From the NCBI GenBank assembly GCA_048320885.1, contig JBLWFJ010000001.1:5633697-5697696 (forward strand): a stretch of 64,000 nucleotides of DNA, read 5' to 3'. Of the stretch, positions 2,142 through 52,221 are shown in pieces. Made by a program: the position numbers and the translations under genes. Within the stretch, counting starts at the first letter, position 1; each line of letters starts with the position of its first letter. The notes beneath the pieces were generated by a model. That model was given only the letters and a program-made list of their open reading frames with translations. It searched no databases and had not been told where the DNA came from. This DNA is from Nannocystaceae bacterium ST9 (GTDB taxonomy: Bacteria; Myxococcota_A; Polyangia; Nannocystales; Nannocystaceae).

Positions 2142-2202
2142 CTGGCGGGGTCGCGGAAGCTGCGCGCTTGACAGCATGGGCGCTCTCGCGGCCCAGTGAC
2201 CC

Positions 2203-4119
2203 ATGCGAGTTCGCTCGATCCCGCGGGGCCTGTCTTCGTCGCTCTCGCTCGCGCTCGGCCTGACCACCGCCTGCCTGAGCGGGTGCAACCCCGACGACGC
2301 GACCGACGACGAGATCGGCGACACCGGGTCCGACTCGGGCAGCGGCGAGTCGAGCGACGCGAGCACGAGCGACACGAGCACGAGCGGCGACACGAGCACG
2401 AGCACGAGCGACACGAGCACGAGCGACACGAGCAGCGACTCGACCAGCGACTCGAGCTCGGACGGCACCGACAGCACGACCGGCGATCCGCCCGATCCCG
2501 CCGACGCCCTGTTCGCGCCCGGGACCATCGCGCAGTTCGACATCGTGCTGAGCGACGCCGAGATCGACGCGCTGAACGTCGACGGCAAGTCCTACGTGCC
2601 CGGCGATCTGACGGTGACGATCGACGGGCAGGCGACCGAGCTGCTCGACATCGGCGTGCGACTCAAGGGCAACTTCGGCTCGTATCGCACGCTCGATCAG
2701 AAGGCCGGCTTCCTGCTCGACTTCAACCGCTACGTCGACATGCAGAAGCTGTTCGGGCTCGGCAAGCTGGCGGTCAACAACATGGTCCAAGACCCCAGCA
2801 TGCAGCGCGAGGTGCTGGGCTACCGGCTGTTCCGCGAGGGCGGGGTCCCAGCGGCTCGCGCCGCGCATGCGGTCGTGACCGTCAACGGCGAGCTCTACGG
2901 GCTCTACACGACCGTCGAGTCGACCGACAACGAGGAGTTCCTCGACACGTGGTTCGGCGATCACGGCGGCAGCCTCTACGAGGGCGCCTACGGCAGCGAC
3001 CTGCTCGCCGACTGGCTGTCGAGCTACGACCAGGACAACGGCCCCGACGTCGGCCTCACCGACCTCGCCGAGCTGATCGCCGCGCTCGACGGCATGACCG
3101 ATCCCGACACCTACGTCAGCGACGTCGACGCCCACGTCGATCTCGATCTCTACCTGACCTACGCCGCGACCTCGCTCTATCTCGGCGACTGGGACGGCTA
3201 CCCCTGGTCGCGCAACAACTACTACATGTATCGCCGACCCAGCGACATGCGCTGGGTGTTCATGCCCTGGGGCATCGATCAGCTCATGGTCGACTACCTC
3301 GATCCCTTCGGCGGTGGCGGCCGGCTCACGCTGATGTGCGCGGCCTCGCTCGAGTGTCGGGCGATGCTGGCCGGCAAGTACGAAGAGGTCGTCGCGCGCG
3401 TCGACGAGCTCGGCCTGGCCGTCGAGGCTCAGAACCTGGCCGACACGCTCTACGACGCCGCGCTCGCCGATCCGCGCAAGGAGTATGCGATCGACGACGT
3501 GCAGGCGACGGTCGCCAGCAACATCGCGTTCTTGACCAACCGCGGGCCGCAGCTGCTCGGCGCGCTGATCTGCACGGACCCGAGCCTGGTCGACGAAGAC
3601 AACGACGGCTACAACGGCTGCGGCCAGGACTGCGACGACTACGACGACGCGGTCAATCCCGGCGCGATGGAGGTCTGCGATCTCGACGACGACAACTGCG
3701 ACGGGCAGTGGGACAACGATCCGGCCTGTCCGCAGTGCATCATCCAGCCCTTGCCCGCGCCGGAGCTCGGCAGCGCGGCGTTCTGCTTCGCGCTGAAGAA
3801 CTGGTCGGCGGCCGAGGTCGACTGCGTCGATCAGGGCGGGCACCTGATCTCGATCCACGATCAGGCGATGCAGGACTTCGTGAGCTCGACCGCGTTCAGC
3901 ATCGCCGGCTCCGACTGGTGGATCGGGATCAACGATCTTTCGCTCGAGAGCACCTTCGCGTGGAGCGACGCCAGTCCGGTCGACTACACGGCGTGGGCCG
4001 GCGGCGAGCCCAACAACGCCGGCGAGGAAGACTGCGGCCACATTGCGCCCTGGGCGGGCGGCGGCTGGAACGACTTGTTCTGCGGATCCGAGATCCGCTA
4101 CATCTGCCGGCTGCCCTGA
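2203..4119 (+). CDS. Lipoprotein with a CotH-like (atypical kinase) domain, MopE-like Cys/Asp metal-binding repeats and a C-terminal C-type lectin domain
   Basis: Signal peptide with lipobox LSGC. S/T/D-rich linker (…TSDTSTSGDTSTSTSDTS…). CotH-like core (…FLLDFNRYVDMQKLFGLGKLAVNNMVQDPSMQREVLGYRLFREGG…). DxDxDGY…CxxDCDD…NPGAxExCDxxDxxCDG motifs. CTLD signature (WWIGINDL…W.DAS…YTAWAGGEPNN…EDCGHI…W…NDL.C….YICR). Confidence 0.8.
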   Translation: MRVRSIPRGLSSSLSLALGLTTACLSGCNPDDATDDEIGDTGSDSGSGESSDASTSDTSTSGDTSTSTSDTSTSDTSSDSTSDSSSDGTDSTTGDPPDPADALFAPGTIAQFDIVLSDAEIDALNVDGKSYVPGDLTVTIDGQATELLDIGVRLKGNFGSYRTLDQKAGFLLDFNRYVDMQKLFGLGKLAVNNMVQDPSMQREVLGYRLFREGGVPAARAAHAVVTVNGELYGLYTTVESTDNEEFLDTWFGDHGGSLYEGAYGSDLLADWLSSYDQDNGPDVGLTDLAELIAALDGMTDPDTYVSDVDAHVDLDLYLTYAATSLYLGDWDGYPWSRNNYYMYRRPSDMRWVFMPWGIDQLMVDYLDPFGGGGRLTLMCAASLECRAMLAGKYEEVVARVDELGLAVEAQNLADTLYDAALADPRKEYAIDDVQATVASNIAFLTNRGPQLLGALICTDPSLVDEDNDGYNGCGQDCDDYDDAVNPGAMEVCDLDDDNCDGQWDNDPACPQCIIQPLPAPELGSAAFCFALKNWSAAEVDCVDQGGHLISIHDQAMQDFVSSTAFSIAGSDWWIGINDLSLESTFAWSDASPVDYTAWAGGEPNNAGEEDCGHIAPWAGGGWNDLFCGSEIRYICRLP

Positions 4120-8788: not shown

Positions 8789-10243
8789 TCAGACCACGTC
8801 GAGCGACCAGTGTGGGTTGCGTCGGACGTGCTCGACGAGCAGCGCGTGCGCGTCGGGTTCGAACGCGACGCCACGCAGATCGACGCTCGCGACGCTCTGT
8901 AGGGTGCGGGAGTCGATCAGTACCCGCGCGACCTCGCCGGGCCAGTCGCCCTCGCCCAGCCTGCCGACATGGCGGCCGAAGGCGTCGCTGAACAGCGCGA
9001 AGCGATCCAGCGACGCGACGATCGGCAGCCCGAGCAAGGCCGCGAGCGCGTCCACGGGCGCGTGCTCGAAGACGTCGTCGTCGAGGCGGAGCTCGAAGAC
9101 ACGCAGGCCGGGCAACTCGCTCTCGCGCAGGAGCTCGGTCGCGAGATCGGGGCGCCAGGCGGTCAGGTCGAGCTCGCGCAGGCGAGGCAGTCTCAGCGAG
9201 CTCGACTCGTTGGCGCAGACCATCCGCAGGCGCTCGAGTCGAGGCAGGCGCTCGGCGGTGAACAGCTCGGCGGTGGCGTGGACGAAGCTCTCGAGCTCGC
9301 GCAGGCCGGCGAGCAGATCGGGATCGGCCGCCATGATCGCCTCGAGCGTCTCGCGGTCGGTGATCCCTCGGCCCAGCTCGAGCGCGCGCAGGCACGCGAC
9401 GATCGGCAGCTCCAGCAGCCCGGCGATCCACTCGCGCGTGCCGTGCCGCCAGGTCCGGCCCGCCGAGAGTCGAGGGTCGAAGCCGAGTCGCTGCACGAGC
9501 CCGCCCGACCAGTCGAGCCGCAGCATGTCGAGGGTCTCGGCGTGGGGCCCGAACAGGTGCCGGCGATGCTCGACGAGCGCCTCGTGAAACGCCCGATCGA
9601 GCCGCTCGCGCTCGCCGGGCTCGCTCGCGCGGGCACGCGCGAGATCCAGCGCCGCGATCAGCCCACGCGGGTCGCCCTGCCGCTGCAACCAGTCGGCGTG
9701 GACCTCCATCGCTTCGTCGGGCGGATCGCCGACGCGGATCGCCTGCTCGAGCGCGGGCTCGCGGGCGCTGCAGCGCAGCGCGACGTCGAGTTCGCGCGCG
9801 CTCGACTCGAGCCCGCGCGCAGCCCAGGCTTCGAGTTCGTCGGCGATCGCCCGGTCGCGCTCGTCGATCTCGACGAACTCCACTTCGCGCTCGCGGATCC
9901 ACTCGTCGGCCTCGCGGCGCTCCCAAGCCAGGCGCAGGCCGTGCCAGCGCAGCCGCTCGATCGGCTGATCGCCGCGCCGCGGGTGGCGAGGATCGAAGGC
10001 GTGGCGAAGCTCGTCCTCCTCGACGAGCCCGACCGCGCTGCCGGCCTCGCGTTCGAAACGCTCGACGATCGCCCGCGCGGCCGCTTCGTCGAGGCCCTGG
10101 GCGAACACCCATTGCTGCTCGACGATGTCCTTGCACTCCTTGAGCCCTCGCCCGGTCAGCTCGCGCATCAACTTGATCGCCGCGATCTTCTGATTGCCGC
10201 CGAGGTAGCGCAGGGAGTAGGTCATGTCGTTCATGCCGTTCAT
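8789..10243 (-). CDS. Protein with an N-terminal ribosomal bL12 C-terminal-domain-like module, a TIGR02996 repeat-companion motif and LRR-like repeats
   Basis: The N-terminus (MNGMNDMTYSLRYLGGNQKIAAIKLMRELTGRGLKECKDIVE…GLDEAAARAIVERFEREAGSAV) resembles the bL12 CTD ([24 protein letters not shown]…). Then …AMEVHADWLQRQGDPRG… (TIGR02996-like), then L-rich repeats. Its ATG overlaps the upstream paralogue's stop (ATGA). Confidence 0.75.
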   Translation of the reverse strand: MNGMNDMTYSLRYLGGNQKIAAIKLMRELTGRGLKECKDIVEQQWVFAQGLDEAAARAIVERFEREAGSAVGLVEEDELRHAFDPRHPRRGDQPIERLRWHGLRLAWERREADEWIREREVEFVEIDERDRAIADELEAWAARGLESSARELDVALRCSAREPALEQAIRVGDPPDEAMEVHADWLQRQGDPRGLIAALDLARARASEPGERERLDRAFHEALVEHRRHLFGPHAETLDMLRLDWSGGLVQRLGFDPRLSAGRTWRHGTREWIAGLLELPIVACLRALELGRGITDRETLEAIMAADPDLLAGLRELESFVHATAELFTAERLPRLERLRMVCANESSSLRLPRLRELDLTAWRPDLATELLRESELPGLRVFELRLDDDVFEHAPVDALAALLGLPIVASLDRFALFSDAFGRHVGRLGEGDWPGEVARVLIDSRTLQSVASVDLRGVAFEPDAHALLVEHVRRNPHWSLDVV

Positions 10244-14253: not shown

Positions 14254-15360
14254 ATGGAGCGCATCACCTTGTTTGGCAAGGGTGGGATCGGCAAGTCGAC
14301 GATCGCCTGTGGGATCTCGGCCAGCCTGGCCGCGAGCGGTCGTCGGGTGCTGCACGTCGGCTGCGATCCCAAGCACGACTCGACCGCCGCGCTGCTCGGC
14401 GGCCAGATGATCGAGCCGGTCATCGATCGCATCACCGCGGTCAAGGGCGTGCGGATCGAGGACATCGTGGTCCGCTCGCCGCTCGGGATCGACTGCGTGG
14501 AGGCGGGCGGACCGGCGGCGGGCGTCGGCTGTGGTGGGCGCGGCATCACCCGGATGCTCGAGATCTTCGACGAGGCCGGCCTGCTCGCGCCCGATCGCTA
14601 CGACCTCGCGCTCTACGACGTGCTCGGCGACGTCGTGTGTGGCGGGTTCGCGGCCCCGCTGCGGCGAGGGATCGGCGAGAAGGTGGTGATCGTCACCTCC
14701 GAGGAGCTGATGTCGCTCTACGCGGCCAACAACATCGCGCGGGCGGTCGTGCACTACGCGAGCAACGGCATCGCGCTCGCCGGCCTGGTCGTCAACCTCA
14801 AGGACCCCGACGCCGATCGGCAGGTCGTCGAGCGCTTCGCCGAGCGGATCTCGACCAAGATCCTGTGCTGGGTGACCCGCGATCCGCTGATCCGCCAGGC
14901 CGAGTACGAGCGCACGACCGTGACCGAGATGGCCCCGCTCGCGCCGATCGCCAAGCTGTTCCGCGAGCTCGCCGATCAGCTGCTCACGCTCGACGTGAAG
15001 GGCACGCCGCTGCCGACTCCGATGGAAGAAGAGCAGTTCTACTTGGCCGCGCGCAGCCGGTTTCGCGCCGACGTCAGGGCCGAGCCGACGCCTGCGGCCA
15101 AGCCCGCGGTCCAGGCCACGCGCGTCGAGCCGGCGCCCGAGCGCTCCGACGTCCGGCCCTCCTCGCTCGCGCGGGGGCCCAAGGTCAGCGCCGATCGTCA
15201 GCGCAAGCAGGCCGAGGTCGAGCGCTACGTCCACGAGCTGCGGGCCGGCGCGCGGGCAGTCCGACTCGGGTTGGTCGGCGCCGACGAGGCGCTGCGTCGC
15301 CTCCAGGCCGCGTTCCCCGAGCAGGCCCGGACGCTTCGCCGCGAGGAGCTGCTGGCGTGA
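14254..15360 (+). CDS. NifH/BchL/ChlL-family Fe-protein ATPase (nitrogenase-like reductase component) with a C-terminal extension
   Basis: FGKGGIGKSTIACGISASLA (P-loop). VGCDPKHDSTAALLGG (switch I). CVEAGGPAAGVGCGGRGI (Cys97 equivalent). YDVLGDVVCGGFAAPLR (Cys132 equivalent). Then ~80 aa of Pro/Ala/Arg-rich and helical extension not present in NifH. Confidence 0.9.
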   Translation: MERITLFGKGGIGKSTIACGISASLAASGRRVLHVGCDPKHDSTAALLGGQMIEPVIDRITAVKGVRIEDIVVRSPLGIDCVEAGGPAAGVGCGGRGITRMLEIFDEAGLLAPDRYDLALYDVLGDVVCGGFAAPLRRGIGEKVVIVTSEELMSLYAANNIARAVVHYASNGIALAGLVVNLKDPDADRQVVERFAERISTKILCWVTRDPLIRQAEYERTTVTEMAPLAPIAKLFRELADQLLTLDVKGTPLPTPMEEEQFYLAARSRFRADVRAEPTPAAKPAVQATRVEPAPERSDVRPSSLARGPKVSADRQRKQAEVERYVHELRAGARAVRLGLVGADEALRRLQAAFPEQARTLRREELLA

Positions 15361-17243
15361 GCACGAGCAGCCTGTTTCCCGAGCTCGAGACCTCGGTCGA
15401 AGTCGCGGCGGGCGTCGACGACATCGAGCCCGAGTGGTCGGCCGAGACCCGCGCGCTCTTCGATCGCCTGGCCAGCGCCGGCGACAGCGAGCTGATCGCC
15501 GCCAGCGAGTCGGTCTACGAGCAGCATCGGGTTCGGCTCTCGGGCCCCGGGATCGCGGCCAGCGTCGCGGTCACTCGCCGCTTCGAGCAGGCGCTCGAGC
15601 TGCCGGGCATGCTGCGCTCGCTCAAGCGGGTCGACGAGGGCCGGATCGAGTTCGTCGCCGAGATCGAGGGCAAGCTCTACAGCGCGGGGCTCGGCCCGGT
15701 CGACGAGCCCGCGTGGCGCAAGGGCAAGACCTTCGCGCTGACCTACCGCGACGAGCTGCACCCGCGGATCGCTCGCGGGTTGATGCGCTTCTTGGCCCGC
15801 TACGACGGCGTGCCCTTCGCGACCATCCTCGCGCTGGTCGAGCCCGACCTCGCCGACCGCCACATGCTGGCGACCGACTATCTCGAGTCGGTGCTCTACT
15901 CGTACGCGCCCAGCAATGGCTGGCGGCGCTTCTTCGAGGGCACCGAGCTCTACCGCGGGACCTGTGGCGGGCACGTCGGCAAGGTCGCGATCGTCGATCA
16001 CACCGAGCTCGAGTGCGCGTTCAACCACGTGCCCTACGAAGAGCGACTGCCGGGCTTCTTCAACGTCCCGCCGACCGAGGACGAGCGCGAGCGCGATCCG
16101 AGTGAACCGGCCACCCAGCAGATCAAGCTGCTGACCGACATCCAGGATCGTGACGTGATCGTCGGCGCCGACGTGCTGCTCGACCGCGCGCTCGAGAGCC
16201 TCGCCGATCACCCGGCCCGGCCCGAGCTGGTCATCGTCCAGGCCGGCTGTCTGCCCGAGGTCACCGGCGACGATCTGCAGGCCTCGGTCGCGCGGACCAG
16301 CGCCCGCCTGCGCCTGCCGGTCGTCGTGGTCGGCCAGCACAACGATCCGGTCGGTCGCTCGATCGGCGAGCTGGTCGAGCGCGAGACCGTCGAGCTCGGG
16401 CGCACGCTCGATCCGACCCTGGTGATGTTCGTCGGCCTGCCGGCGTTTCGCGGTCGTCGGCAGGTGTTCGAGCTGTTCGAGCGGGCCGGCATCCGGGTCG
16501 CGGGCGCGCTCTTGCCCAACTTCGATCCCGACGTGGTCGCGCGCCTGCCCGCGGTCTCGCTCTTCGTGCTGCACCCCTGGGAGCGCTACGAGGTCTCGGC
16601 CAAGCGCATGGCCGCCCGCTACGCGCCCGCGCGGGCGATCGCTCCCGGCACTCCCTTCGGCGTGCGCGGCACTCGACGCTGGATGCTGGCGATCGCCGAG
16701 GCGCTCGGTCGTCGAGCCGAGATGCTCGCGGTGCTCGACGCCGCGTGGGCCGAGCTGGCCCCGCGTTGGGCGGCCCTGCGGGCGCGCGCGCGTCGGCATC
16801 GGCTCGGCTTCGTCGTCGAGCAGTCGAGCTGGCAGCTGGCCCTGTCGGCGCGGCGGAGCTTCGGCGCGCCCGTGGTCGAGCAGCTCGGCGAGATGGGCTT
16901 CGGGCTCGAGGTCCTGGCCTTCGCCGGGACCGCTGCGCTGCCCGAGCAGCGCTTCGACAGCCTGCGCGTGCGCAGCTACGCCGACTGCGACGAGCTCGCG
17001 CGCCTGCTCGCGGCCGACGAGGTCTCGGCCTGGTACAGCGAGCTGCACTACGATCGCCGACTGACTCGCAGCGGCAAGAACTCGTTCTCGCTCCGGCATG
17101 TCCGCATGGGCCTGCAGGGCGCGGTCGACTCGCTGGCCGAGCTGCTCGATACCATCGAATTGCCCTTCTACCGCCGCTACGGCGCCTATCTCGGCACCGC
17201 CTTTCCCGAGCTCGGCGATCCCGAGCACGCAGGAGCACGATGA
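15357..17243 (+). CDS. Nitrogenase component-1-like protein (NifK/BchB-like large subunit homologue), 628 aa
   Basis: GTG overlapping the upstream stop (GTGA). Conserved cysteines (GTCGGHVGK, TELECAF, and VQAGCLPEVTGDDLQ resembling the C..E.IGDDl motif of NifD/K/BchN/B). The long N-terminal extension is unique. The assignment rests on recalled motifs, not an alignment. Confidence 0.55.
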   Translation: MSTSSLFPELETSVEVAAGVDDIEPEWSAETRALFDRLASAGDSELIAASESVYEQHRVRLSGPGIAASVAVTRRFEQALELPGMLRSLKRVDEGRIEFVAEIEGKLYSAGLGPVDEPAWRKGKTFALTYRDELHPRIARGLMRFLARYDGVPFATILALVEPDLADRHMLATDYLESVLYSYAPSNGWRRFFEGTELYRGTCGGHVGKVAIVDHTELECAFNHVPYEERLPGFFNVPPTEDERERDPSEPATQQIKLLTDIQDRDVIVGADVLLDRALESLADHPARPELVIVQAGCLPEVTGDDLQASVARTSARLRLPVVVVGQHNDPVGRSIGELVERETVELGRTLDPTLVMFVGLPAFRGRRQVFELFERAGIRVAGALLPNFDPDVVARLPAVSLFVLHPWERYEVSAKRMAARYAPARAIAPGTPFGVRGTRRWMLAIAEALGRRAEMLAVLDAAWAELAPRWAALRARARRHRLGFVVEQSSWQLALSARRSFGAPVVEQLGEMGFGLEVLAFAGTAALPEQRFDSLRVRSYADCDELARLLAADEVSAWYSELHYDRRLTRSGKNSFSLRHVRMGLQGAVDSLAELLDTIELPFYRRYGAYLGTAFPELGDPEHAGAR

Positions 17244-18562
17244 CCTTCGACGGATCCGCGAGCTCGCTCGCCGACGACGTGCTGCCGCACGAGCAGTTCT
17301 CGAAGCCCTACCGGCTGCCCTTTCACCTCGGCCTCTACCTGGCGATCAACGCGATCCCCGGCTGCTTCGCGGTGATCGACGGGCCCGACTGTCTGTATCG
17401 CAAGGCCGAGTGGGTGCACGGCCGCCACGACCTGCGCTCGACCCTGCTCGACGCCGGCGGCCGCCACCGGATCGCCCCGACCTTCCTGCACTCCGGCGAG
17501 GTCATCAAGGCCAAGGGCGACGAGGTCGTCAAGCGCCTGCGACGGATCGGGCAGTTCGCCGACGCCGAGCTCGTGCTGGTCAACACCATGCCGCACGTGC
17601 AGATCATCGGCACGCAGTACGACCGGCTGATCGCCGAGGTCGAGGCCGAGGTCCGGGCGCCGATCTACGAGGTCCCGAGTCGAGCGCTCGAGGGCGACTG
17701 GCTCGACGGCTACGCCGAGGTCTTGAACACCTTGGCGCGGCGGATCCCGCTGACCGGCGACCTGCGGCCCGGCACGGTCGCGATCGTCGGATTGCTGATG
17801 GATCGCAACGAGGCCGACGGCCTGGCCAACGTCGCCGAGCTCGAGCGGCTGATCGCCGGGCTCGGGCTCGAGCCGATCTCGACCTGGCTGAGCGGGCGTC
17901 GCTTCGAGCACCTGTGCGCGGCCGGCTCGGCCGAGCTGATCGTCGCGCTGCCCCACGGCGTCGACGCGGCGCGCGTGCTGGCCAAGCGGACCGGCGCTCG
18001 CGTCGTCGAGGTCGCTCAGCCCTTCGGATTGCCCGCGAGCCTGCGAATGCTGCGAGCGGTCGGCTTGGTCGGCGGGCGCGAGCGCGAAGCCGAGCAGCTG
18101 ATCGACGCCGAGCTGCGCCGGACCCTGCCGATGTTCGAATGGCTGATCCCGACCACGCTGCTCGGTCGCAAGCTGGCCTTCTCGGGTGATCCGACGCTCT
18201 TCGACGGCGTGCTCTCGGGCGTGCGCGAGCTCGGCATGGACATCCTGCACCTCAGCTCGTCGGCGCGCCGTCCGGCCCACGGCGTCGGCCTCGACGGCGA
18301 CGAGCACGGCACGCTGCCGCCGGTCTTGTTCGCGCCGCCCAACGACACGCTGTTTCGTTCGCTGAGCCAGCACTCGCGCGAGATCGACCTGCTGATCGCC
18401 AATACCCTGGTCACCAGCCAAGAGATCGCGCTTCGCTTCGACTTCGGGTTCCCGAATTTCTTTCGCCACGCGCTGCACGAGAGCCCCTACCTGGGCGTGC
18501 GCGGCTGGGCGTGGTTCGTCCAAGAGCTGGCCACGCTGCTCGCTCGACGACTGCGGCGTTGA
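17240..18562 (+). CDS. Nitrogenase component-1-like protein (NifD/BchN-like subunit homologue), 440 aa
   Basis: ATG overlapping the upstream stop (ATGA). N-terminal …AINAIPGCFAVIDGPDCL… resembles the hGPxGC cluster-binding region of NifD/NifE/BchN. No ORF on the other strand of this region looks protein-like. Confidence 0.55.
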   Translation: MTFDGSASSLADDVLPHEQFSKPYRLPFHLGLYLAINAIPGCFAVIDGPDCLYRKAEWVHGRHDLRSTLLDAGGRHRIAPTFLHSGEVIKAKGDEVVKRLRRIGQFADAELVLVNTMPHVQIIGTQYDRLIAEVEAEVRAPIYEVPSRALEGDWLDGYAEVLNTLARRIPLTGDLRPGTVAIVGLLMDRNEADGLANVAELERLIAGLGLEPISTWLSGRRFEHLCAAGSAELIVALPHGVDAARVLAKRTGARVVEVAQPFGLPASLRMLRAVGLVGGREREAEQLIDAELRRTLPMFEWLIPTTLLGRKLAFSGDPTLFDGVLSGVRELGMDILHLSSSARRPAHGVGLDGDEHGTLPPVLFAPPNDTLFRSLSQHSREIDLLIANTLVTSQEIALRFDFGFPNFFRHALHESPYLGVRGWAWFVQELATLLARRLRR

Positions 18563-18651: not shown

Positions 18652-19839
18652 CTACTCGAGCCGCTGCACGCCGAGGTCGAGCACCCCGCCCTCGCGCATG
18701 GCCCCGCTGACCGACTCGGCCGGGGTCGTCGTCCACTGCTCGCCGATCTGCAGGGCCCACCCGTAGCGAGCGAGCGGCACGGCCTCGAACGCGAAGCTGC
18801 CGTCGGCCTGGGTCTTGGTCGCGAAGCGCAAGGGCGAGTTGTCGCAGGGCGTGGCGTGGAAGAGCGGCGCGGGCCGAGGGCAGATCTCGAGCTGGGCGTG
18901 GGCGACCGGCTTGCCGCGAAATTCGAGCTTGCCCGCGATGCCGCCGGTGCGGACCGGGCCGGGCTCGGGCAGCTCGCTCGGGCCACCGCCGACGACCGCG
19001 ATCGATCGCAGCGCACCGACCAGCTCGGGCACCGATCCGCTCGGGTAGGCCGCGACCACTCCGCTCGCGTCGAGCACGTGCACACCGCTCAGCGAGCCGA
19101 CCCACACGCGCGCCGAGCCGTCGATCGCCAGCGCGGTCGGGTACTCGCAGCCGTAGCTCGGCTCGCGACCACGCGTCCAACTGCGGCTCGGGTCGGCCGG
19201 ATCGATCAGCCCGAGCTCGCAGGTCGTCCCGGCGACCGCGACCACGCCCGCGTCGGTGAGCGCGAGCTCGCGGGCGTGGCCGAAGGGCAGGGCGAGCGCG
19301 AGCTCGGCGAGCGGGTCGGGGCCGGCGAAGCGCCACACGTGCTCGTCGGCGAGCACGAACAGCTCGCCTCGCGGCGCGCTCGCGAAGCCGACCACCTCGC
19401 GGCCGAGCTTCGGGCCGAGCTCCCAGCGATCGTCGTGCGCGCGACCGATCGCCGCGCTGCCGATCGCCCACAGGCCCGCGGACGTGAACGCGATCTGCTC
19501 GACCTCGCCGAGCCCGGCGTCGAAGCCGGTCTGAACCGTGAAGCCGTCGTCGCCGAGCGCGAGCAGCCCGGCCTCGCCGAGCGCGAGCAGTCGGCCGGCG
19601 GGGCTGGTCAGCAGCGCGCGAGCATCGACCGCGTGGGCGATCGTCTCGAACTCGCCGGCCTCGCCCAGTCGGACCACGCGATCGTCGATCGCCAAATACA
19701 CCCCGCGCGGGGACTCGCGCTCGGACGCGGGGTTCGAGACATCTTCACTCGCGCGCTCGGGCGGCGTCGTGACCTCGGGCGCGGGGCAGGCGGACAGCGA
19801 TCCGAGCACGAGCGAGGCGGCGAGGCGCGAGGGCGACAC
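18652..19839 (-). CDS. Lipoprotein with a C-terminal carboxypeptidase-regulatory-like beta-sandwich (hypothetical)
   Basis: Putative GTG start giving …SRLAASLVLGSLSAC (lipobox). C-terminal …GKLEFRGKPVAHAQLEI…ADGSFAFEAVPLARYGW… Start codon uncertain. Confidence 0.5.
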   Translation of the reverse strand: MSPSRLAASLVLGSLSACPAPEVTTPPERASEDVSNPASERESPRGVYLAIDDRVVRLGEAGEFETIAHAVDARALLTSPAGRLLALGEAGLLALGDDGFTVQTGFDAGLGEVEQIAFTSAGLWAIGSAAIGRAHDDRWELGPKLGREVVGFASAPRGELFVLADEHVWRFAGPDPLAELALALPFGHARELALTDAGVVAVAGTTCELGLIDPADPSRSWTRGREPSYGCEYPTALAIDGSARVWVGSLSGVHVLDASGVVAAYPSGSVPELVGALRSIAVVGGGPSELPEPGPVRTGGIAGKLEFRGKPVAHAQLEICPRPAPLFHATPCDNSPLRFATKTQADGSFAFEAVPLARYGWALQIGEQWTTTPAESVSGAMREGGVLDLGVQRLE

Positions 19840-19870
19840 GCCGCGATCATGAACCAGCGATCGCTCGCCG

Positions 19871-21499
19871 TCACTCGTCCTCGCCCGGCTCGCGAAAGGG
19901 CAGATCGAGCACGAAGCGAGCCCCGTGCCCGAGGCCCTCGCTCGCACCCGAGAGCCGGCCGCCCATCTCGGTCGCCGCGTTGGCGCTCACGTGCAGGCCG
20001 AAGCCCGAGCCCTGCTCGCCCTTGGTCGTGTAGCCATGCACGAAGATCCGCTCGAGGTCGCCCGGCGGGATCCCGACCCCGCGATCGCGGACTTCGAATC
20101 GGATCTCGCGATCGGCGAGCCGCTGGGCCGCGATCGTCAGCGTGTGCTCGTCGGTCGGCGCGGGATCGAGCGGGTCGCTCGGGTGGGCCTGGTCGATCGC
20201 GTCGGCGGCATTGCGGATCAAGTTGATCAGGATCTCGAGCGTGCGGTGCTTGTCGAGCATCAGCGCGGGCAGGTCGGCGACCTCGCGGACGATCCGGTAG
20301 CGTCGTTGGCGTTGGTTCGAGAGCGCGACGGCGAGCGCGAACTCGATCAACGCGCCCGGCTCGATCCGCTCGTAGTCGAGCCGGGTGATGCCATGCTGCT
20401 GATAGGCGCGGACGATCCGAACCAGGTGATCGACGCGCTCGCGCAGGCGGGCCAGCTCGCTGGAGTAGGCGCTCGACTGCCGCTCGAGCTCGGGCGCGAG
20501 CAGCAGCAGGTACTCGGCCAGCCGGCGGCCGGTCGGATCGTCGGCGAGGTAGCGGGCCAGGTGGTCGCGCTGGGGCTCGAGCATTCGACCGATCCGTGCG
20601 ACCCGATCGAGGCGCTGCTCGATCCGCTGCTCTTCGATCATGTCGAGCGAGACGCCGACGCTGTTGAGCGCGTTGCCGACGTTGTGCAGCACCCCGGTGG
20701 TGATCTGGGCGACGCCGGCCTCGCGGGCGAGGTCGCGAGCCCGCCGGGCGGCCTGCTCACGAGCCAGGCGCGAGCGAGCGAGCTGCTCGACCATGTGGTT
20801 GAAGCCACGCCCGAGTCGAGCCAGCTCGCTCTCGCCACGCAGATCGACGCGCGCGTCGAGATCGCCGGACGCGATCCGCTTGGCCGCGTCGAGCAGGGCC
20901 GCGAGATCGCGGCGCATCCGGCGAAGCAAGCCGAGCCCCGGGACCACCACGAAGGCCACGCCGAACAGCGCGAGCGAGAGCAGGCGTCGGCCGAGCCGAT
21001 CGGTCAACTCGCTCTCGCGCGCGCGGGCCTGCGCGAGCTCGTCGCGTTCGTCGGCGGCGATCGAGTCGGTCAGTCGCTGGAATCGCGCGAGGGTCTCGGA
21101 GTCGGACGCGCCCGAACGATCGACGCTCGCTACGAAGCTCGCCAGCCGGGCGACCTCTTCGAGCTCCTCGTCGTGCTCGTGCGGGTCGTCGTCGGTCTCC
21201 GCCTGGGTGTTGGTCGTGAGCTCGTCGAGCCGGGCTTGGACCTCGGCCCGTCGGCGCGCCGCCTGCGGGCTGCCGGGATCGAGCTCGAGCGCGTCCACCC
21301 ACGCCCGCATGGCCAGGTCGAGCTCGCTGGCGAGGGCCTGCTGGCGGTGGGTCTGATCCATCCAGTCGTGCAGGCGTCGCAGCGTGACCGCGCTCTGCCA
21401 GCCGCCGACGCCGAGCAGGATCATCACCGAGAGGTTGACCGCGGCGAGGGCCACCGCGAGCGTCCGCGAGTCGGCCCAGCGCGGCATGAATCGGCTCAT
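19871..21499 (-). CDS. Sensor histidine kinase (TM, HAMP, HisKA, HATPase_c)
   Basis: Internal ATG giving MSRFMPRW…TLAVALAAVNLSVMILLGVGGW (TM). HAMP region. H-box …TGVLHNVGNALNS…. N/G boxes …LINLIRNAADAI…RDRGVGIPP…GSGFGLHVS…. Confidence 0.85.
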   Translation of the reverse strand: MSRFMPRWADSRTLAVALAAVNLSVMILLGVGGWQSAVTLRRLHDWMDQTHRQQALASELDLAMRAWVDALELDPGSPQAARRRAEVQARLDELTTNTQAETDDDPHEHDEELEEVARLASFVASVDRSGASDSETLARFQRLTDSIAADERDELAQARARESELTDRLGRRLLSLALFGVAFVVVPGLGLLRRMRRDLAALLDAAKRIASGDLDARVDLRGESELARLGRGFNHMVEQLARSRLAREQAARRARDLAREAGVAQITTGVLHNVGNALNSVGVSLDMIEEQRIEQRLDRVARIGRMLEPQRDHLARYLADDPTGRRLAEYLLLLAPELERQSSAYSSELARLRERVDHLVRIVRAYQQHGITRLDYERIEPGALIEFALAVALSNQRQRRYRIVREVADLPALMLDKHRTLEILINLIRNAADAIDQAHPSDPLDPAPTDEHTLTIAAQRLADREIRFEVRDRGVGIPPGDLERIFVHGYTTKGEQGSGFGLHVSANAATEMGGRLSGASEGLGHGARFVLDLPFREPGEDE

Positions 21500-21978
21500 G
21501 CGTCTCGTCCCCGCGCGAGCGCGAGGGCCAGCGCGCGCAGTTGCTGCGCGCGAAACGGCTTCTGGAGCGTCTCGATCCTTCGGCCGGGAGCCAGTCGCTC
21601 GGTCAGGAGCTGCAGCTTGGCGTCGGCGTAGGCCGTGCAGAACACGATCGGCAACTCGTCGTCGAGCGCGAGCATGGCCTCGGCCGTCCGTACACCATCC
21701 CACCCTGGTGGCATCCGCATGTCGACCAGGGCCAGCGCATAGCGGCGGCCTTGCTCGCGCTCGCTTCGAACCTGCTGGGCGCCGTCGCGACCCTGGAAGG
21801 CCGAGTGGACCTCGAAGCGCTCGCTGGCCTCGTCGAGCTCTGTATCGAGCTCGAAGAGCTGGCGCTCGAGCGCCTGCAGATCGTCGTCGAGCTCGTGCGG
21901 GCTGGTCAGCGCGCGCCGAATGTCCTCGTGAATCGCTCGATCGTCGTCGACGACCAAGATCCGCAATTCGGGGTTCAC
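21496..21978 (-). CDS. Single-domain response regulator (CheY-like receiver)
   Basis: ILVVDDD…LALVDMRMPPGWDG…VFCTAYAD…LQKPF. Its stop overlaps the kinase ATG (ATGA). Confidence 0.85.
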   Translation of the reverse strand: MNPELRILVVDDDRAIHEDIRRALTSPHELDDDLQALERQLFELDTELDEASERFEVHSAFQGRDGAQQVRSEREQGRRYALALVDMRMPPGWDGVRTAEAMLALDDELPIVFCTAYADAKLQLLTERLAPGRRIETLQKPFRAQQLRALALALARGRDA

Positions 21979-22370
21979 GAGCCTGCCCTCGTCGCGTGCC
22001 GATGGCGACTGGATGGCGGATTCTTCAGCCCTGGTCGGAAGACCACGAATGCGAGCGAAACCAGCTGCAATTGCAATGCTGCAATCGACGTCGGAATCCC
22101 CTCCGGCTTGCCGGCCGGGAGCCTGCCAACCGCCCGCTGGGGGCCCGAACAGGCAGAATTCAGGTTTTCGTGAATTCGTACCGTGTCATGCGAATTGATC
22201 GCTTCCGCGCCGACGAAGGTGCAGGAAGTCCACATGCGATCATTGTGCATTGTTTGGCGCCTGCCGACTACTGTCACGAAGATCGAATCGCCGGTGCGAC
22301 TCGAGATGGCGAATCAGCCATTCGTGCGGCCTCGACCCCTCGCCGCGGACGTGGTGCTACGCTGACCACG
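21979..22370. promoter_or_regulatory. 392-bp lower-GC divergent intergenic region between two paralogous receiver genes, containing palindromes
   Basis: GCAATTGCAATGCTGCAAT (palindromic GCAATTGC plus a third GCAAT). GAATTCAGGTTTTCGTGAATTCG (GAATTC…GAATTC). This is the only long AT-richer non-coding stretch in this part of the window. Confidence 0.35.
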
Positions 22371-22952
22371 ATGCGAGCGACTCCCACGAGTCTCGCACCG
22401 GCGTCTCCCCCCGGACCCCGGCCCAGCGTGCGTTCGACATGGGGGGCGTCCACCAACCCGCAGCTCGAACCACCGACCACGGTGCTGATCGTCGACGACG
22501 ACCCGGCGATCCACGACGATTTCCTGCGGGCGCTCGCCGAGCGCAGCGGGCCGCGGACGACCGAGATCGAGGCGCTGCTGTTCGGCGCGGGTGCGCCGGC
22601 GAGCAAGGCGGTCGGTCACCTGCTCGAGCACGCCTACCAAGGTCGCGAGGCGCTCGACGTGATCGAGGCCGGGCTCCGACGTGGACGGCAGACCATGGTC
22701 GCGTTCGTCGACATGCGGATGCCGCCCGGCTGGGACGGCATCGAGACCATCGAGCGGCTCTGGCAGGTCGATCCGGCGATCCAGTGCGTGGTCTGTACCG
22801 CCTACTCCGACTTCGTGTGGGAGGAGGCGCAGGCGCGGCTTCACCACAATCGTCGCCTGCATCTGCTGCGCAAGCCGTTTCGGACCAGCGAGGTCGTTCG
22901 GCTCGCTGGCGTGCTGGCGGGCAAGTGGCAGCGCGAGCAAGCGCAGGGCTGA
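22371..22952 (+). CDS. Single-domain response regulator, paralogue of the 21496-21978 gene
   Basis: VLIVDDDP…VAFVDMRMPPGWDG…VVCTAYSD…LRKPF. ~40 aa Pro/Ser-rich N-terminal extension. Confidence 0.8.
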   Translation: MRATPTSLAPASPPGPRPSVRSTWGASTNPQLEPPTTVLIVDDDPAIHDDFLRALAERSGPRTTEIEALLFGAGAPASKAVGHLLEHAYQGREALDVIEAGLRRGRQTMVAFVDMRMPPGWDGIETIERLWQVDPAIQCVVCTAYSDFVWEEAQARLHHNRRLHLLRKPFRTSEVVRLAGVLAGKWQREQAQG

Positions 22953-28775: not shown

Positions 28776-30197
28776 TCACACCGTCGCAGAGAAGCGAGCG
28801 GCCGCGGCCTGCTTGGTCCGCAGTCGCTCGTCGAACACCATCGCGACGTTGCGGACGAAGAAGCGCCCGAGCGGGGTCAGCCGCAGCGCGTCGACGTCGT
28901 CGATCAGCAGGCCGTCGAACTCGGCCGCGTGCAGCTCGGCCAGCTCGCGCTGGAAGTGGCGATCGAAGTCGACGTCGAAGCGCTCGCGGATTCGCTCGCG
29001 CTCGACTTGGTGCTGGCACATCAGGTCCTCGATCACCGCCGCGCGGAGGCGATCTTCGGGCGTGCGGACGATGCCCTTGGCGGTCGGCAGCTCGCCGCGC
29101 TCGATCGCCTGCTGCCAGTGGATCAGCTTGGCGTGGTTCTGCACGTAGGTGCCGGCGACCTCGCCGATCGCGGTGACGCCGAAGCCGAGCAGGTCGGTCC
29201 CGGCCGTGACCGTGTAGCCCATGAAGTTGCGGCGCAGCGTCCCGGCCCGCTCGGCACGGGCGAGCGGATCGTCGGGCCACGCGAAGTGGTCCATGCCGAT
29301 CGCTCGATAGCCGACCGCGAGCAGGCGCTCGCGCGCGCTCAGAAACAGCTCGAGGCGGGCGGCGGCGTCGGGCAGCGTGCTCGGATCGATCGCGCGCTGG
29401 TTGCCGCGGCCGGGCATCCAGGGCACGTGGGCGTAGCCGTAGAGCGCGATCCGATCGGGCGCCAGCTCGAGCACGCCGTCGAGGGTCCGCTGCATGCTGG
29501 CCTCGCTCTGCGCGGGCAGGCCATAGACGAGGTCGAGGTTGATCCCGCGGACTCCGGCGGCGCGGCAGCCCACGACGACCTCGCGGATCCGATCGAAGCT
29601 CTGCAGCCGACCGATCGCGCGCTGGACCTCGGGGTCGAGATCCTGGACGCCGAGCGAGACGCGATCGATCCCGAGCTCGGCGAAGAGTCCGACGTGCTCG
29701 TCGGTGGTCGCGCGCGCGTCGAGCTCGATCGACCACTCGCGTCCGTGGCGATGATCGTCGGCGAACTCGCGCGAGATCGCTTCGAACACGCGGGCCAGCT
29801 GCGCGGGCGAGAGGTAGCTGGGTGTGCCGCCGCCCAGGTGCAATTGCGCGAGCTGCCGACGCGCGCCGAGCCGATGACCGACCAGCTCGATCTCGCGGAT
29901 CAGGTGGGCGACGTAGGGCTCGGCCACGCGATCGTGATCGGGGCTGGCGATCACCGAGCAAGCGCAGAAACTGCATCGCTGGGCACAGAAGGGCACGTGG
30001 ACGTAGGCCGACCACGATTCGCTGGTGCGCGCGCGGGCGAGCTCGAGCCGGCGCGCGTAGTCGTCGGAATCGAGCGGGCCGAAGTCGGCGGCCGTCGGGT
30101 AGCTGGTGTAGCGCGGGCCGGCCTTCGAATGGCGGGCCGCGAGCTGACGCAGACGTTGGCGGGAGAGCTCATCGACGGGTGAGGTGGACTCGAGCAC
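28776..30197 (-). CDS. hemN: Oxygen-independent coproporphyrinogen III oxidase (radical SAM)
   Basis: …GPRYTSYPTA… N-terminal HemN motif. Radical SAM CAQRCSFCAC. Full-length HemN-like C-terminus. The GTG start was chosen ~25 aa upstream of PRYTSYP and is uncertain. Confidence 0.85.
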   Translation of the reverse strand: MLESTSPVDELSRQRLRQLAARHSKAGPRYTSYPTAADFGPLDSDDYARRLELARARTSESWSAYVHVPFCAQRCSFCACSVIASPDHDRVAEPYVAHLIREIELVGHRLGARRQLAQLHLGGGTPSYLSPAQLARVFEAISREFADDHRHGREWSIELDARATTDEHVGLFAELGIDRVSLGVQDLDPEVQRAIGRLQSFDRIREVVVGCRAAGVRGINLDLVYGLPAQSEASMQRTLDGVLELAPDRIALYGYAHVPWMPGRGNQRAIDPSTLPDAAARLELFLSARERLLAVGYRAIGMDHFAWPDDPLARAERAGTLRRNFMGYTVTAGTDLLGFGVTAIGEVAGTYVQNHAKLIHWQQAIERGELPTAKGIVRTPEDRLRAAVIEDLMCQHQVERERIRERFDVDFDRHFQRELAELHAAEFDGLLIDDVDALRLTPLGRFFVRNVAMVFDERLRTKQAAAARFSATV

Positions 30198-30354
30198 CGC
30201 GTTCAGGATCGCAGCTCGGCCGGTCGAGCGCGTCGGCAATGCGTGCAGCGAGTCCACGCACGACGACCGCGATGGCGTGTGCCGAGCCTGCACAGTCAGC
30301 GCACGAAAACCGTGCGCTTTTCCGGCCCGGCGAGCTCGGGCAGCTTGAACTTCG
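30198..30354. promoter_or_regulatory. Divergent promoter region between hemN and the boxB-like gene
   Basis: 157-bp gap between divergent starts. Confidence 0.3.
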
Positions 30355-31779
<1,425 letters not shown>

Positions 31780-35834: not shown

Positions 35835-35967
35835 GGCGAGCCGGGCTTGAACGCGATCGCTGCGGGTGCAAGCGGGCCTTCGTTCGTGCGGCTCCCTCGG
35901 GCAGCGCGGCGCAGGATCGGCGGGGCGCGAATCAGCGCGGCATACGCTATGCTGGCGGGCAGCGGCG
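35835..35967. promoter_or_regulatory. Divergent promoter region between the regulator-like gene and hypF
   Basis: 133-bp gap between divergent starts. Confidence 0.3.
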
Positions 35968-38629: not shown

Positions 38630-39780
38630 AGTACGTCGACGAATTTCGCGATCCCGAGCGAGCGCGCGCGTTGTTGGCCGCGATCGAGGGCTTGCTCGAT
38701 CGGATCCCCGCCGCCGCGATCCGACCGCTCGCGCTGATGGAGATCTGTGGCGGCCACACCCACGCGATCTTTCGCCATGGGCTCGACACCATGCTCCCGC
38801 CGGCGATCGAGTTCGTGCACGGGCCGGGCTGTCCGGTCTGCGTGTTGCCGATGGGCCGGGTCGACGACGCGGTCGCGATCGCCGAGACGCCGGGGGTGAT
38901 CTTCACGACCTTCGGCGACGCGCTGCGGGTGCCGGGCTCGCGCAAGAGCCTGGCCGAAGCCAAGGCCGGCGGCGCCGACGTGCGGATGGTCTACTCGCCG
39001 CTCGACGCCCTGGGCCTGGCTCGCGCCCACCCCGAGCGCGAGGTCGTGTTCTTCGCGCTCGGGTTCGAGACCACGATGCCGAGCACGGCGCTGACGGTGA
39101 TGCAGGCCAAGGCCGATCGGGTCGGCAACTTCTCGCTCTTCTGCAATCACATCACGATCGTCCCGACCCTCGCGGCGCTGCTCGATTCGCCCGACGTGCA
39201 GATCGACGGCTTCCTCGGGCCCGGCCATGTCAGCGTGGTGATCGGCAGCTCGCCCTACGAGTTCGTCGCGACCCGCCATCGCCGTCCGCTGGTCGTGACC
39301 GGGTTCGAGCCGCTCGACGTGCTGCAAGGGGTGTGGATGGTGCTCAGTCAGCTCGCGCGCGGCGAGGCACGGGTCGAGAATCAATACGCCCGAGTCTCGG
39401 CCGCGCAGGGCAACCCGGCCGCGCTCGCGGCGATCGCCGAGGTGTTCGAGCCGCGCGAGACCTTCGAATGGCGCGGGCTCGGATCGATCGCCGAGTCGGG
39501 CGTCCAGCTGCGCGCGGCCTGGGCCGAGTTCGACGCCGAGCGGCGCTTCGCGGTGCCCGGCGTGACCCACCGTGATCCCGAGGCCTGCCAGTGCGGCGAG
39601 GTCCTGCGCGGCGCGCTGCAACCATACGAGTGCCGAGTGTTCGGGACCGCGTGCACGCCCGAGACCCCGATGGGCGCGCTGATGGTCTCGTCCGAGGGCG
39701 CGTGCGCGGCCCACCATCGCTTCGGTCGGCTCGGCAAGCGCCTGCCGATCCTCGATCAGGCCGGAGCACGGCCGCGATGA
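38626..39780 (+). CDS. hypD: Hydrogenase maturation factor HypD
   Basis: GTG overlapping the hypC stop. …CGGHTHAIF…GPGCPVCV…FGD…CQCG…C… conserved HypD cysteine motifs. Confidence 0.9.
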   Translation: MKYVDEFRDPERARALLAAIEGLLDRIPAAAIRPLALMEICGGHTHAIFRHGLDTMLPPAIEFVHGPGCPVCVLPMGRVDDAVAIAETPGVIFTTFGDALRVPGSRKSLAEAKAGGADVRMVYSPLDALGLARAHPEREVVFFALGFETTMPSTALTVMQAKADRVGNFSLFCNHITIVPTLAALLDSPDVQIDGFLGPGHVSVVIGSSPYEFVATRHRRPLVVTGFEPLDVLQGVWMVLSQLARGEARVENQYARVSAAQGNPAALAAIAEVFEPRETFEWRGLGSIAESGVQLRAAWAEFDAERRFAVPGVTHRDPEACQCGEVLRGALQPYECRVFGTACTPETPMGALMVSSEGACAAHHRFGRLGKRLPILDQAGARPR

Positions 39781-45934: not shown

Positions 45935-45935
45935 G

Positions 45936-46736: not shown

Positions 46737-47230
46737 TTCGCCTCCGCGACGTCGAGCTGCGCGAGGTCCAGCCAGCGGCGCGCGCTGAACTGCTCGCCGC
46801 TCGGATCTTCGAGCGCGACGGTCAACTCGTAGAGCCCCGCGCTCGGGATCGCCGGCTCGCCGCGATAGCGACCCTCGCCGCGCTCGACCAAGCTCAGCTC
46901 GTGGTCGTCGCCGCGATCCGCCCGGCGCAGCGTCACGCTGCCGCGCAGGCCCGCGAGCGGCCGCTGCTCGGCGTCGACGATCGTGAGCTCGAGCGCCTGG
47001 CCCTCGCGCGCGAGCGCGGCGATCGACCAGCCGAGCTCGCGGCTGTGCGCGCGGCGTTCGAGCTCCTGCTCCCAGGCCAGCGACTCGGCCCAGTGATCCA
47101 CGCTGGCCGGCAGCGAGGGATGCGAGAGCGCGATGCCGATCATGATCAGGTTGGTGATCACCACGCCGCTCAGCCCGGCGATCACGGCGATCGGTCCGCG
47201 CCAGCTGCCTCGTTCGTCGTCGCGGCTCAT
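46733..47230 (-). CDS. ccoH: cbb3 oxidase assembly protein CcoH/FixH
   Basis: Single N-terminal TM (IAVIAGLSGVVITNLIMIGIAL), then a periplasmic domain. Sits between ccoG and the TauE-like gene with overlapping start/stop. Confidence 0.75.
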   Translation of the reverse strand: MSRDDERGSWRGPIAVIAGLSGVVITNLIMIGIALSHPSLPASVDHWAESLAWEQELERRAHSRELGWSIAALAREGQALELTIVDAEQRPLAGLRGSVTLRRADRGDDHELSLVERGEGRYRGEPAIPSAGLYELTVALEDPSGEQFSARRWLDLAQLDVAEAK

Positions 47231-48702: not shown

Positions 48703-48724
48703 GATGATGATTCGCAGATTGCGA

Positions 48725-51938: not shown

Positions 51939-52221
51939 GGGCGGCACGCTTCGCCCCAACCCTTACCCGGTTTCACCTCGCCGGTAAGCCTTGCGCGTGC
52001 GGCTAGTGATGCGCGGTGCGGTCGGCTCGCACGCAGAAGATTCGTGTTTCGGAATCGCTCGATGTTTCGGACCGCGAGGCTCGGCAGAGTTTGCGGGAAG
52101 CGAGGATTGCTTCGAGGATGCTCGCGCATCCTTCGCGGACGTTCGCTCGCCCGAGCGAGGGCGCGGCCCTTGGCCCGCGGATCGAAGATTGGTCTTGCCC
52201 CAAAATTTCAGACACCCAGTT

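Follow-up and report, generated by a model that had tools for sequence, protein, structure and literature searches.

The stretch analysed here, called the window in the following, comprises 64,000 nucleotides of Nannocystaceae bacterium ST9 (assembly GCA_048320885.1, contig JBLWFJ010000001.1, positions 5,633,697 to 5,697,696 of the forward strand) and contains an operon of three genes which code for an iron protein of the NifH family (H) and for two proteins resembling the component-1 subunits NifD and NifK of nitrogenase (D and K). The question raised by this locus is to which branch of the nitrogenase superfamily the triad belongs and what it may reduce. An earlier note on the same DNA concluded that the operon matches no known nitrogenase-like (NFL) family and might represent a new reductase class. 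However, the list of families used there omitted the Group VI NFL enzymes. Judged by profiles, a tree and a published list of genomes, the triad belongs to Group VI; this group and its presence in Myxococcales have already been published, and the triad is no new enzyme class. Taken as a whole, we consider it likely that the locus codes for an NflH–NflD–NflK enzyme of Group VI in a cultured Nannocystaceae myxobacterium, working by the mechanism proposed below.

Group VI was defined as a new NifH clade in groundwater Elusimicrobia, with homologues also in two Gracilibacteria and in fourteen Myxococcales genomes. The group has no cluster-assembly genes, its D and K proteins are very divergent and are devoid of some of the P-cluster cysteines, and in Elusimicrobia many radical SAM genes are found in the neighbourhood, which vary from 0 to 13 copies and are not universal (Meheust et al. 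2020, 10.1101/765248). According to a 2026 review, Group VI proteins have at most four of the six P-cluster cysteines, no NifB and no ligands of the iron–molybdenum cofactor FeMo-co (PMC13474568, section 7). The same review lists no characterised member, names the want of tractable hosts and a gene context with few clues as the main obstacles, and reports that a tetrapyrrole substrate has been proposed from the gene context in Elusimicrobia (PMC13474568). Among the major branches of the nitrogenase superfamily no other is without a characterised member. A position within an already characterised clade had been named as an outcome that would speak against a new class, and this applies in part: the clade is catalogued, but its function is not characterised.

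Table S2 of the defining study includes Enhygromyxa salina SWB007, GCA_002994635.1 (Meheust et al. 2020, 10.1101/765248). This genome carries the same triad in the same order on contig PVNL01000142.1 (locus L001), where H is 67%, D 50% and K 63% identical to the proteins of the window, and this H protein is presumably the sole NifH homologue of SWB007. The H-D-K order is likewise found in Pseudenhygromyxa sp. WMMC2535 (L002), in a Byssovorax metagenome-assembled genome (MAG) and in several Nannocystaceae and Myxococcales MAGs.

Profiles of the D and K families were compared with references taken from plasmids, namely NifH, NifD, NifE and NifK of Rhizobium, BchL, BchN, BchB and BchX of Tateyamaria and the NFL proteins of Sporomusa. 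With the D-family profile the Group VI-type D proteins of Elusimicrobia and Deltaproteobacteria reach 251–327 bits, compared with 46 bits for NifE, 37 for NifD, 22 for BchN and 21 for NflD of Sporomusa. The K-family profile gives 342–612 bits for Group VI-type K proteins (371–407 for K of Elusimicrobia) and at most 26 bits for all other references. The core of the iron protein is 51–52% identical to the H domains of Elusimicrobia and 47–53% to the non-myxobacterial members of the clade, whereas the identity is 45% to NflH of Sporomusa, 40% to the two NifH references and 36–37% to BchL and BchX. In a neighbour-joining tree built from 262 core columns, with two NifH, the Sporomusa NflH, BchL and BchX as references, 199 of 200 bootstraps unite H of the window with six myxobacterial H proteins, with the two H domains of Elusimicrobia and with the H proteins of L018 and of the Deltaproteobacteria contig L019 in a single clade.

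The family is large. In an exhaustive HMMER search the D-family profile detected 1515 representatives with E ≤ 1e-3, of which 451 reach E ≤ 1e-30, and one of the D-family representatives listed, P0189, falls at 90% identity into one cluster with a protein encoded by a MAG of the Elusimicrobia. A word-indexed search had pointed to a tiny, Nannocystaceae-limited family of 41 proteins; given the result of the exhaustive search we rejected this as a sensitivity artefact. Most D-family representatives have a length of about 560–660 aa, more than 100 H proteins of 340–390 aa can be aligned to H of the window over the full length, and 109 database homologues of 330–420 aa align over approximately the full length. 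The subunit sizes of 368, 628 and 440 aa, which had been regarded as unmatched, are therefore typical of a large sub-branch of Group VI.

Further properties of the group are found in the window as well. Its D and K proteins are strongly divergent from NifD and NifK and homologous to D and K of Elusimicrobia, at most four of the six P-cluster positions are filled (C203, C220 and C298 of D and C51 of K), and ligands of FeMo-co are missing. The genes nifB, nifE and nifN were found neither in the scanned parts of the window nor among the called genes of the related loci, and the scanned stretches of the window did not contain bch or cfb genes either, as had been stated before. The radical SAM suite of the Elusimicrobia is not found beside the triad: no radical SAM gene adjoins it in the window or at L001, L002, L004, L005, L012, L013, L015 and L017. 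This co-location is, however, a contextual and not a defining property of Group VI.

The assignment of the first gene to the NifH family is confirmed by its motifs. The core of the protein comprises residues 1–262 and contains a P-loop (GKGGIGKS, at residue 8), a switch I motif (DPKHDST, at residue 38) and two cysteines, C93 and C129, which are the ligands of the [4Fe-4S] cluster. The best match in the PDB is NifH with 212 bits. Behind the core follows an Ala/Arg/Pro-rich tail which comprises residues 263–368 and is thus with 106 residues longer than the approximately 80 residues estimated previously. The tail ends in a conserved helix, AGARAVRLGLVGADEALRRLQAAFPE, which is present in every unfused H protein in an alignment of 10 sequences from the window and related loci. 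A strict pattern for the tail module matches 84 of the 109 long H homologues, and the 15 non-matching tails inspected carry the module too; it is missing from the tail-less H protein of L019. Among the relatives of H there are also single chains of 584–636 aa in which two NifH units are arranged in tandem (P0282, P0307, P0308, P0315, P0317, P0322 and P0324). In most of these chains the cluster cysteines are kept in both halves, which would make them covalently linked dimers of the Fe protein.

The D and K proteins would form a component-1 pair, as had been proposed from their motifs. Both match PF00148, in case of D limited to residues 259–564, and the AlphaFold2 model of D matches the MarD/NifD fold in Foldseek with E ~1e-16, MarD (9d9u, 9fmg) being the top match. 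The relationship is distant: the Foldseek alignments of D with NifD chains have 13–17% identity, and on the sequence level D and K match entries of the PDB only with E ~1e-4 to 1e-5 (NifD and NifK ~1e-4). The core of D extends from about residue 185 to residue 628. It is preceded by the N-terminal extension noticed before, which is with about 185 residues somewhat longer than the 170 residues assumed; within it lie the invariant peptide LFPEL and a folded domain roughly 100 residues long.

D contains four cysteines in total. Two of them, C220 and C298, occur in all 18 family members compared, and a third, C203, in 16; in an alignment to NifD, NifE and BchN, C220 and C298 align with Cys88 and Cys154 of NifD and C203 is adjacent to Cys62. 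Beyond residue 298 there is no invariant cysteine or histidine in the 18 D homologues, and equivalents of the FeMo-co ligands Cys275 and His442 of NifD are missing in D. Thus, D has no site for FeMo-co or an L-cluster. K contains three cysteines. C51 in the motif DGPDC, part of the IDGPDCL singled out previously, is invariant in 12 family members and C42 is variable; of the cysteine numbers given at that time Cys220 of D and Cys42 of K are correct, and Cys202 and Cys50 have to be replaced by C203 and C51. There is no equivalent of NifK Cys95 in K, and the position of NifK Cys153 is occupied by a methionine in the window and in all family members but one, which has a leucine. We also tried to map C51 exactly on Cys70 of NifK and Asp36 of BchB. 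The alignment places C51 in an insertion about 10 residues upstream of this canonical position, which is itself occupied in this family by a conserved HGxHD motif (residues 60–64), and the equivalence is therefore uncertain.

None of the three proteins reaches the NCBIfam cut-off of NifH, BchL, BchX, CfbC, NifD/K/E or BchN/B/Y/Z. H scores 271 bits with the nifH model (cut-off 394), 271 with CfbC (402), 203 with BchL (345) and 188 with BchX (331). D and K remain at or below 37 bits with the NifD/K/E and BchN/B/Y/Z models (cut-offs 320–1200), for example 17 bits with nifD (cut-off 654), 18 with nifK (427), 28–31 with BchN (420), 19 with BchB (490) and about 16–17 with BchY and BchZ (425–529). 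Since the ligands and the gene context differ in addition, the separation of the triad from Nif, DPOR, COR, CfbCD and Mar that was made earlier can be maintained.

Nevertheless, a comparison with these systems is instructive. DPOR (BchL/ChlL and BchN-BchB, Group V) also combines an ATP-dependent Fe protein with a heterodimer of the D/K type and manages without a complex cluster and without NifB. Moreover, the single inter-subunit [4Fe-4S] cluster predicted for the window would be bound in the 3+1 fashion of DPOR, with three cysteines from N or D and one residue from B or K. On the other hand, H is only 37% identical to BchL, the scores are far under the cut-offs, the scanned parts of the window yielded no bch genes, and as fourth ligand a cysteine situated in an insertion would take the place of the aspartate. 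The CfbCD system (Group IV-B) shares the simple [4Fe-4S] chemistry, and H scores equally with the CfbC and the NifH model. CfbC has been reported to be stably bound to CfbD (PMC13474568), which parallels the theme of tether and fusion in the branch of the window (see below). CfbD is, however, a homodimer without K, whereas the window has a conserved separate K; no cfb genes were found in the scanned parts of the window, and the host is a bacterium and not a methanogen. With the Mar, Isr and Nfa systems (Group IV) the triad has the H-D-K order and the overall fold in common. In this group MAR was observed, and most other Group IV enzymes are predicted, to bind P-like and L-like clusters, and ISR diverges from the P-cluster cysteines and is predicted to bind only a [4Fe-4S] cluster (PMC11423573, PMC13474568). 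Finally, the Mo, V and Fe nitrogenases (NifHDK, VnfHDGK, AnfHDGK) belong to the same superfamily and share with the triad the component-1 fold and an Fe protein which is 40% identical and has its ATPase and cluster motifs in common, but the window has neither the set of six P-cluster cysteines nor equivalents of Cys275 and His442, and no nifB, nifE or nifN was found nearby.

By profile score and tree, the H, D and K families of the window are those of the Group VI enzymes known from Elusimicrobia, Gracilibacteria and Myxococcales, but within Group VI the myxobacterial branch has features of its own. The Elusimicrobia contig compared here, which encodes the cluster mate of P0189, contains two H-D fusions, each followed by a K gene, a third pair of D and K and eight radical SAM genes, in agreement with the arrangement for which Group VI was first described; H is thus fused to D in two of its three D copies, unlike in the window. 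The myxobacterial branch, in contrast, is a bare triad without conserved radical SAM or tetrapyrrole neighbours. Its H protein has a tail of about 100 residues with a terminal helix, its D protein starts with LFPEL and keeps the Cys62-equivalent that is missing in the Elusimicrobia copies compared.

How could this enzyme work? The ATPase and cluster motifs of NflH can be read from the sequence: as a homodimer it would hold one inter-subunit [4Fe-4S] cluster by C93 and C129 and bind ATP at the P-loop and at switch I and II. By homology with nitrogenase and DPOR, it would dock on NflD/NflK and deliver single electrons, with ATP hydrolysis as the gate, to one [4Fe-4S] cluster of the simple type between D and K. 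Conservation and alignment point to C203, C220 and C298 of D and C51 of K as the most likely ligands, similar to the 3+1 coordination of the NB-cluster of DPOR. As there is no site for FeMo-co or an L-cluster and no NifB-type maturase nearby, the enzyme should bind an organic substrate in NflD and reduce it by two electrons. This substrate would most likely be reduced at a C=C bond of a tetrapyrrole-type macrocycle, which corresponds to the hypothesis published for Group VI and receives weak support from the loci compared here. To our knowledge, every characterised NFL enzyme with a simple [4Fe-4S] cluster reduces a tetrapyrrole, and this general argument favours a tetrapyrrole also in the present case.

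Several observations weigh against this picture. The reaction suggested is an extrapolation, since Group VI is without a characterised member. The myxobacterial loci do not have the radical SAM and tetrapyrrole context from which the tetrapyrrole hypothesis has been derived: no tetrapyrrole gene adjoins the myxobacterial triads apart from a sub-threshold hint at L015, and the flanking genes vary between genera, so that the survey for a conserved neighbourhood in Myxococcota that the earlier note had envisaged yields none. The host family is aerobic, which is awkward with an oxygen-labile Fe protein. The fourth ligand, to be provided by K, is uncertain because C51 is situated in an insertion and the HGxHD motif occupies the canonical position. 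The tree of the H proteins is distance-based only and was calculated without references for CfbC, MarH, IsrH and NfaH, and the idea of a tether between H and D (see below) has co-occurrence as its sole basis.

A serious rival, which we regard as possible rather than probable, leaves the triad in Group VI and assumes that the myxobacterial enzyme acts on a substrate other than a tetrapyrrole, namely on a different organic molecule that is conjugated or difficult to reduce for another reason, for example a lipid-type, isoprenoid-type or secondary-metabolite intermediate, with the N-domain of D aiding its binding. The missing tetrapyrrole neighbours would fit to this proposal, and the general argument from the simple-cluster enzymes speaks against it. 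A C–S bond-cleaving organosulfur reductase similar to Mar or Isr appears quite unlikely. MarD is the top Foldseek match of D, and 9fmg_D ('Nitrogenase iron protein' of a methylthio-alkane reductase complex), which we take to be MarH, scores 207 bits against H compared with 212 bits for NifH. However, the Mar, Isr and Nfa systems have the gene set BHDK with a radical SAM protein B, and no B gene is found in any myxobacterial locus. In addition, the triad has only four candidate cysteine ligands and no L-cluster ligand, and no sulfur-metabolism genes are found near the triad in the window or in the related loci.

That the triad stands apart from Nif, DPOR, COR, Cfb, Mar, Isr and Nfa as well as from Group VI and represents a wholly new class is very unlikely. 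It is true that no protein passes an equivalog cut-off of NCBIfam, that the PDB matches of D and K do not exceed E ~1e-4 to 1e-5 and that the locus has no accessory genes, but the same triad is present in SWB007, whose genome has been published as one with Group VI, the Group VI-type loci of Elusimicrobia reach 250–400 bits with the D and K profiles, and the clade of the H proteins was recovered in all but one of the bootstraps. The triad could also be the decaying relic of a larger Group VI cluster. The missing radical SAM accessory genes of the Elusimicrobia would be compatible with such a history, and so would a locus of the Myxococcales MAG HK-STAS-MYXO-17 (L014:8001-10330), which looks decayed, since K is intact there but of D only the C-terminal half is left and H is missing upstream. 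We consider this highly improbable for the window, as the three reading frames are intact there and in at least nine other loci, as the ratios of nonsynonymous to synonymous substitutions (dN/dS) are 0.17–0.40, and as cluster ligands and ATPase motifs are conserved. Practically no probability remains for a divergent true N2-fixing nitrogenase. Its only arguments are the family resemblance and the H-D-K order; equivalents of Cys275 and His442 are missing, only four of the six P-cluster cysteines are present, nifB, nifE and nifN were found neither in the scanned parts of the window nor in the genes called at the related loci, and the nifH score of 271 is below the cut-off of 394.

Returning to the Group VI enzyme as we propose it, the tail of H and the N-terminus of D deserve attention. 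In the window and in nine related loci in which both genes are readable, a tail-bearing H is paired with a D starting with LFPE, and in L019 (one of one locus) a tail-less H is paired with a D without the LFPE motif. Furthermore, 19 of the 150 D-family representatives listed are single-chain H-D fusions of 744–1067 aa. In 18 of these 19 fusions there is no LFPE-type motif at or near the junction of H and D; the exception is P0008 with a match to the pattern at residue 377 in the inter-domain linker. These sequence patterns suggest that the C-terminal helix of H binds to the LFPEL peptide or the N-domain of D and probably holds the Fe protein in a non-covalent manner, as the equivalent of the H-D fusions of sister lineages. 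The terms 'fusion' and 'fused' do not occur in this sense in Meheust et al. (2020) or in the review (PMC13474568). What is new here is the lack of conserved neighbours in the myxobacterial branch, the co-occurrence of tail and LFPE and the H-D fusions in sister lineages.

Among the fusion chains (for example P0063, P0076-P0184, L016:919-3555 and L016:4909-7236) one or two copies of the N-domain of about 100 aa are located between H and the D core. The Pseudenhygromyxa genome codes for an H-D fusion of 970 aa, which we examined as a proof of the coupling. It has a Gly/Arg/Gln-rich linker, remnants of the tail helix lie in another frame (L002:10817-11122), and LFPE is found in no frame at the junction; this chain is either a real fusion generated by a deletion or an artefact of an assembly indel. 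As a sequencing indel is possible, we did not use it as a proof and relied on the other 18 representatives and the two Elusimicrobia fusions.

One may go further and suppose that the myxobacterial branch of Group VI is functionally distinct, that is, a minimal three-gene NFL enzyme of aerobic heterotrophs which manages without accessory genes, acts on a non-tetrapyrrole substrate and whose components are permanently tethered by the tail helix and LFPEL. We regard this combination as doubtful. If it were true, the tether would be the non-covalent counterpart of the single-chain H-D fusions and would constitute a type of component coupling which has not been described for nitrogenase-family enzymes in Meheust et al. 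(2020) or PMC13474568.

The triad of the window is the simplest form of the family, with three coupled genes, no conserved partners and a host that is apparently culturable, since the strain name ST9 and a contig of 6.98 Mb suggest an isolate. Relatives are known from culture as well, in Enhygromyxa salina SWB007 and Pseudenhygromyxa sp. WMMC2535. With a minimal triad in cultured strains, heterologous expression and a knock-out come within reach. Mutagenesis could be directed at concrete sites, namely the conserved cysteines, the tail of H together with LFPEL, and the N-domain; the classification of the triad is unaffected by them. The coordinates of the operon and its elements are collected in Table 1.

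Table 1. Position of the three genes and of the elements discussed in the text (numbering of the window)
Feature	Position	Strand	Remarks
NflH-like Fe protein, 368 aa	14254..15360	+	PF00142 Fer4_NifH 1.5e-83
Low-complexity Pro/Ala/Arg-rich linker in H tail	15040-15204	+	
Conserved C-terminal helical module of H tail, ELRAGARAVRLGLVGADEALRRLQAAFPE...REELLA	15205..15357	+	10-sequence alignment
NflD-like component-1 subunit, 628 aa	15357..17243	+	GTG start; PF00148 3e-14 and Foldseek
Invariant LFPEL peptide, D residues 6-10	15372..15386	+	L6, F7, P8, E9 invariant in 18 sequences
Folded alpha+beta N-domain of D, ~100 residues (~60-165)	15534..15851	+	no Pfam family matched
NflK-like component-1 subunit, 440 aa	17240..18562	+	ATG start; PF00148 1.4e-37

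Both overlaps that had been taken as a sign of translational coupling are real. At the junction of H and D the GTG at 15357 overlaps the TGA at 15358-15360 (GTGA), and at the junction of D and K the ATG at 17240 overlaps the TGA at 17241-17243 (ATGA). The overlap of four nucleotides between H and D was found in eight of nine loci checked; in L015 the start directly follows the stop. A GC3 frame plot backs all three frames over their full length, including the N-terminal extension of D, with a third-position GC content of 0.85–0.98. In comparison with the closest relative the dN/dS ratio of H is 0.17, that of D 0.40 and that of K 0.34, which argues that the three genes are functional. A scan for promoters and terminators returned nothing above chance.

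The neighbours on both sides are as first described. Upstream of the triad lie thyA and folA on the minus strand; downstream follow genes for a protein without known function, for a histidine kinase with response regulators and for an ECF sigma factor. A functional link of the triad to thyA-folA was considered and rejected. The adjacency is kept in the closest relatives L004, L007 and L008 and is missing in E. salina, Pseudenhygromyxa, L005, L012, L013, L015 and L017, and as it is limited to the closest relatives it is to be regarded as synteny by descent. The downstream block at 18652-22600 consists of a protein of 431 aa (18652-19947, minus strand), a HAMP histidine kinase (19871-21703) and response regulators and separates the triad from a pair of an ECF sigma factor and a Ser-Thr kinase. 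In L004, the closest and syntenic relative, this block is missing and the sigma factor gene directly follows the K gene. The 431-aa protein was also tested as a partner of the triad: in Pseudenhygromyxa there is a gene of equal size and position, yet the two proteins are unrelated.

With respect to radical SAM and tetrapyrrole genes two loci outside the Elusimicrobia should be mentioned, which are the only ones with tetrapyrrole-flavoured neighbours seen there. In L015, a distant MAG, a weakly TP_methylase-like gene (L015:9312-10073; 8.6e-5, below the Pfam cut-off) follows K. The contig L019 has two pairs of D and K, each with a radical SAM gene, and a Cob_adeno_trans (cobalamin adenosyltransferase) gene; the stretches concerned are L019:906-1460 and L019:4210-8800. 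In the window itself a radical SAM protein of 591 aa with a HemN_C domain is encoded 10 kb downstream of the triad, at 28776-30551 on the minus strand, next to a PaaA/PaaC-like protein at 30349-31779 on the plus strand. The two frames overlap as called, so that one of the start codons is probably wrong. The pair looks inserted, as its flanking genes adjoin each other in L004. As an accessory gene of the triad the radical SAM/HemN_C gene was rejected, as it is missing in the syntenic L004 and has no relative in any of the fetched Group VI loci.

A different NFL triad of the order H-D-K is found on plasmid pSPTER (131 kb) of Sporomusa termitida, directly after an iron ABC transporter operon (L022:6001-9273).

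Some further genes of the window may be noted. Hydrogenase maturation genes are represented by hypF (35866-38343) and a hypE-like gene of the AIR-synthase fold (39591-40877), and a cluster for a cbb3-type oxidase comprises a fused ccoN-ccoO (49573-51972), fixG (47227-48861) and a P-type ATPase (43424-46093). Together these genes suggest that the organism is capable of growing under micro-oxic conditions, and this may be of importance for an enzyme that is oxygen-labile. At 8789-10228 on the minus strand a protein of about 479 aa is encoded whose N-terminus resembles the C-terminal domain of ribosomal L7/L12 (PF00542, 3.7e-8) and whose remainder has no Pfam match, and the gene at 2200-4119 on the plus strand codes for a protein in which a CotH kinase domain occurs together with a C-type lectin domain and a metal-binding motif of the MopE type.

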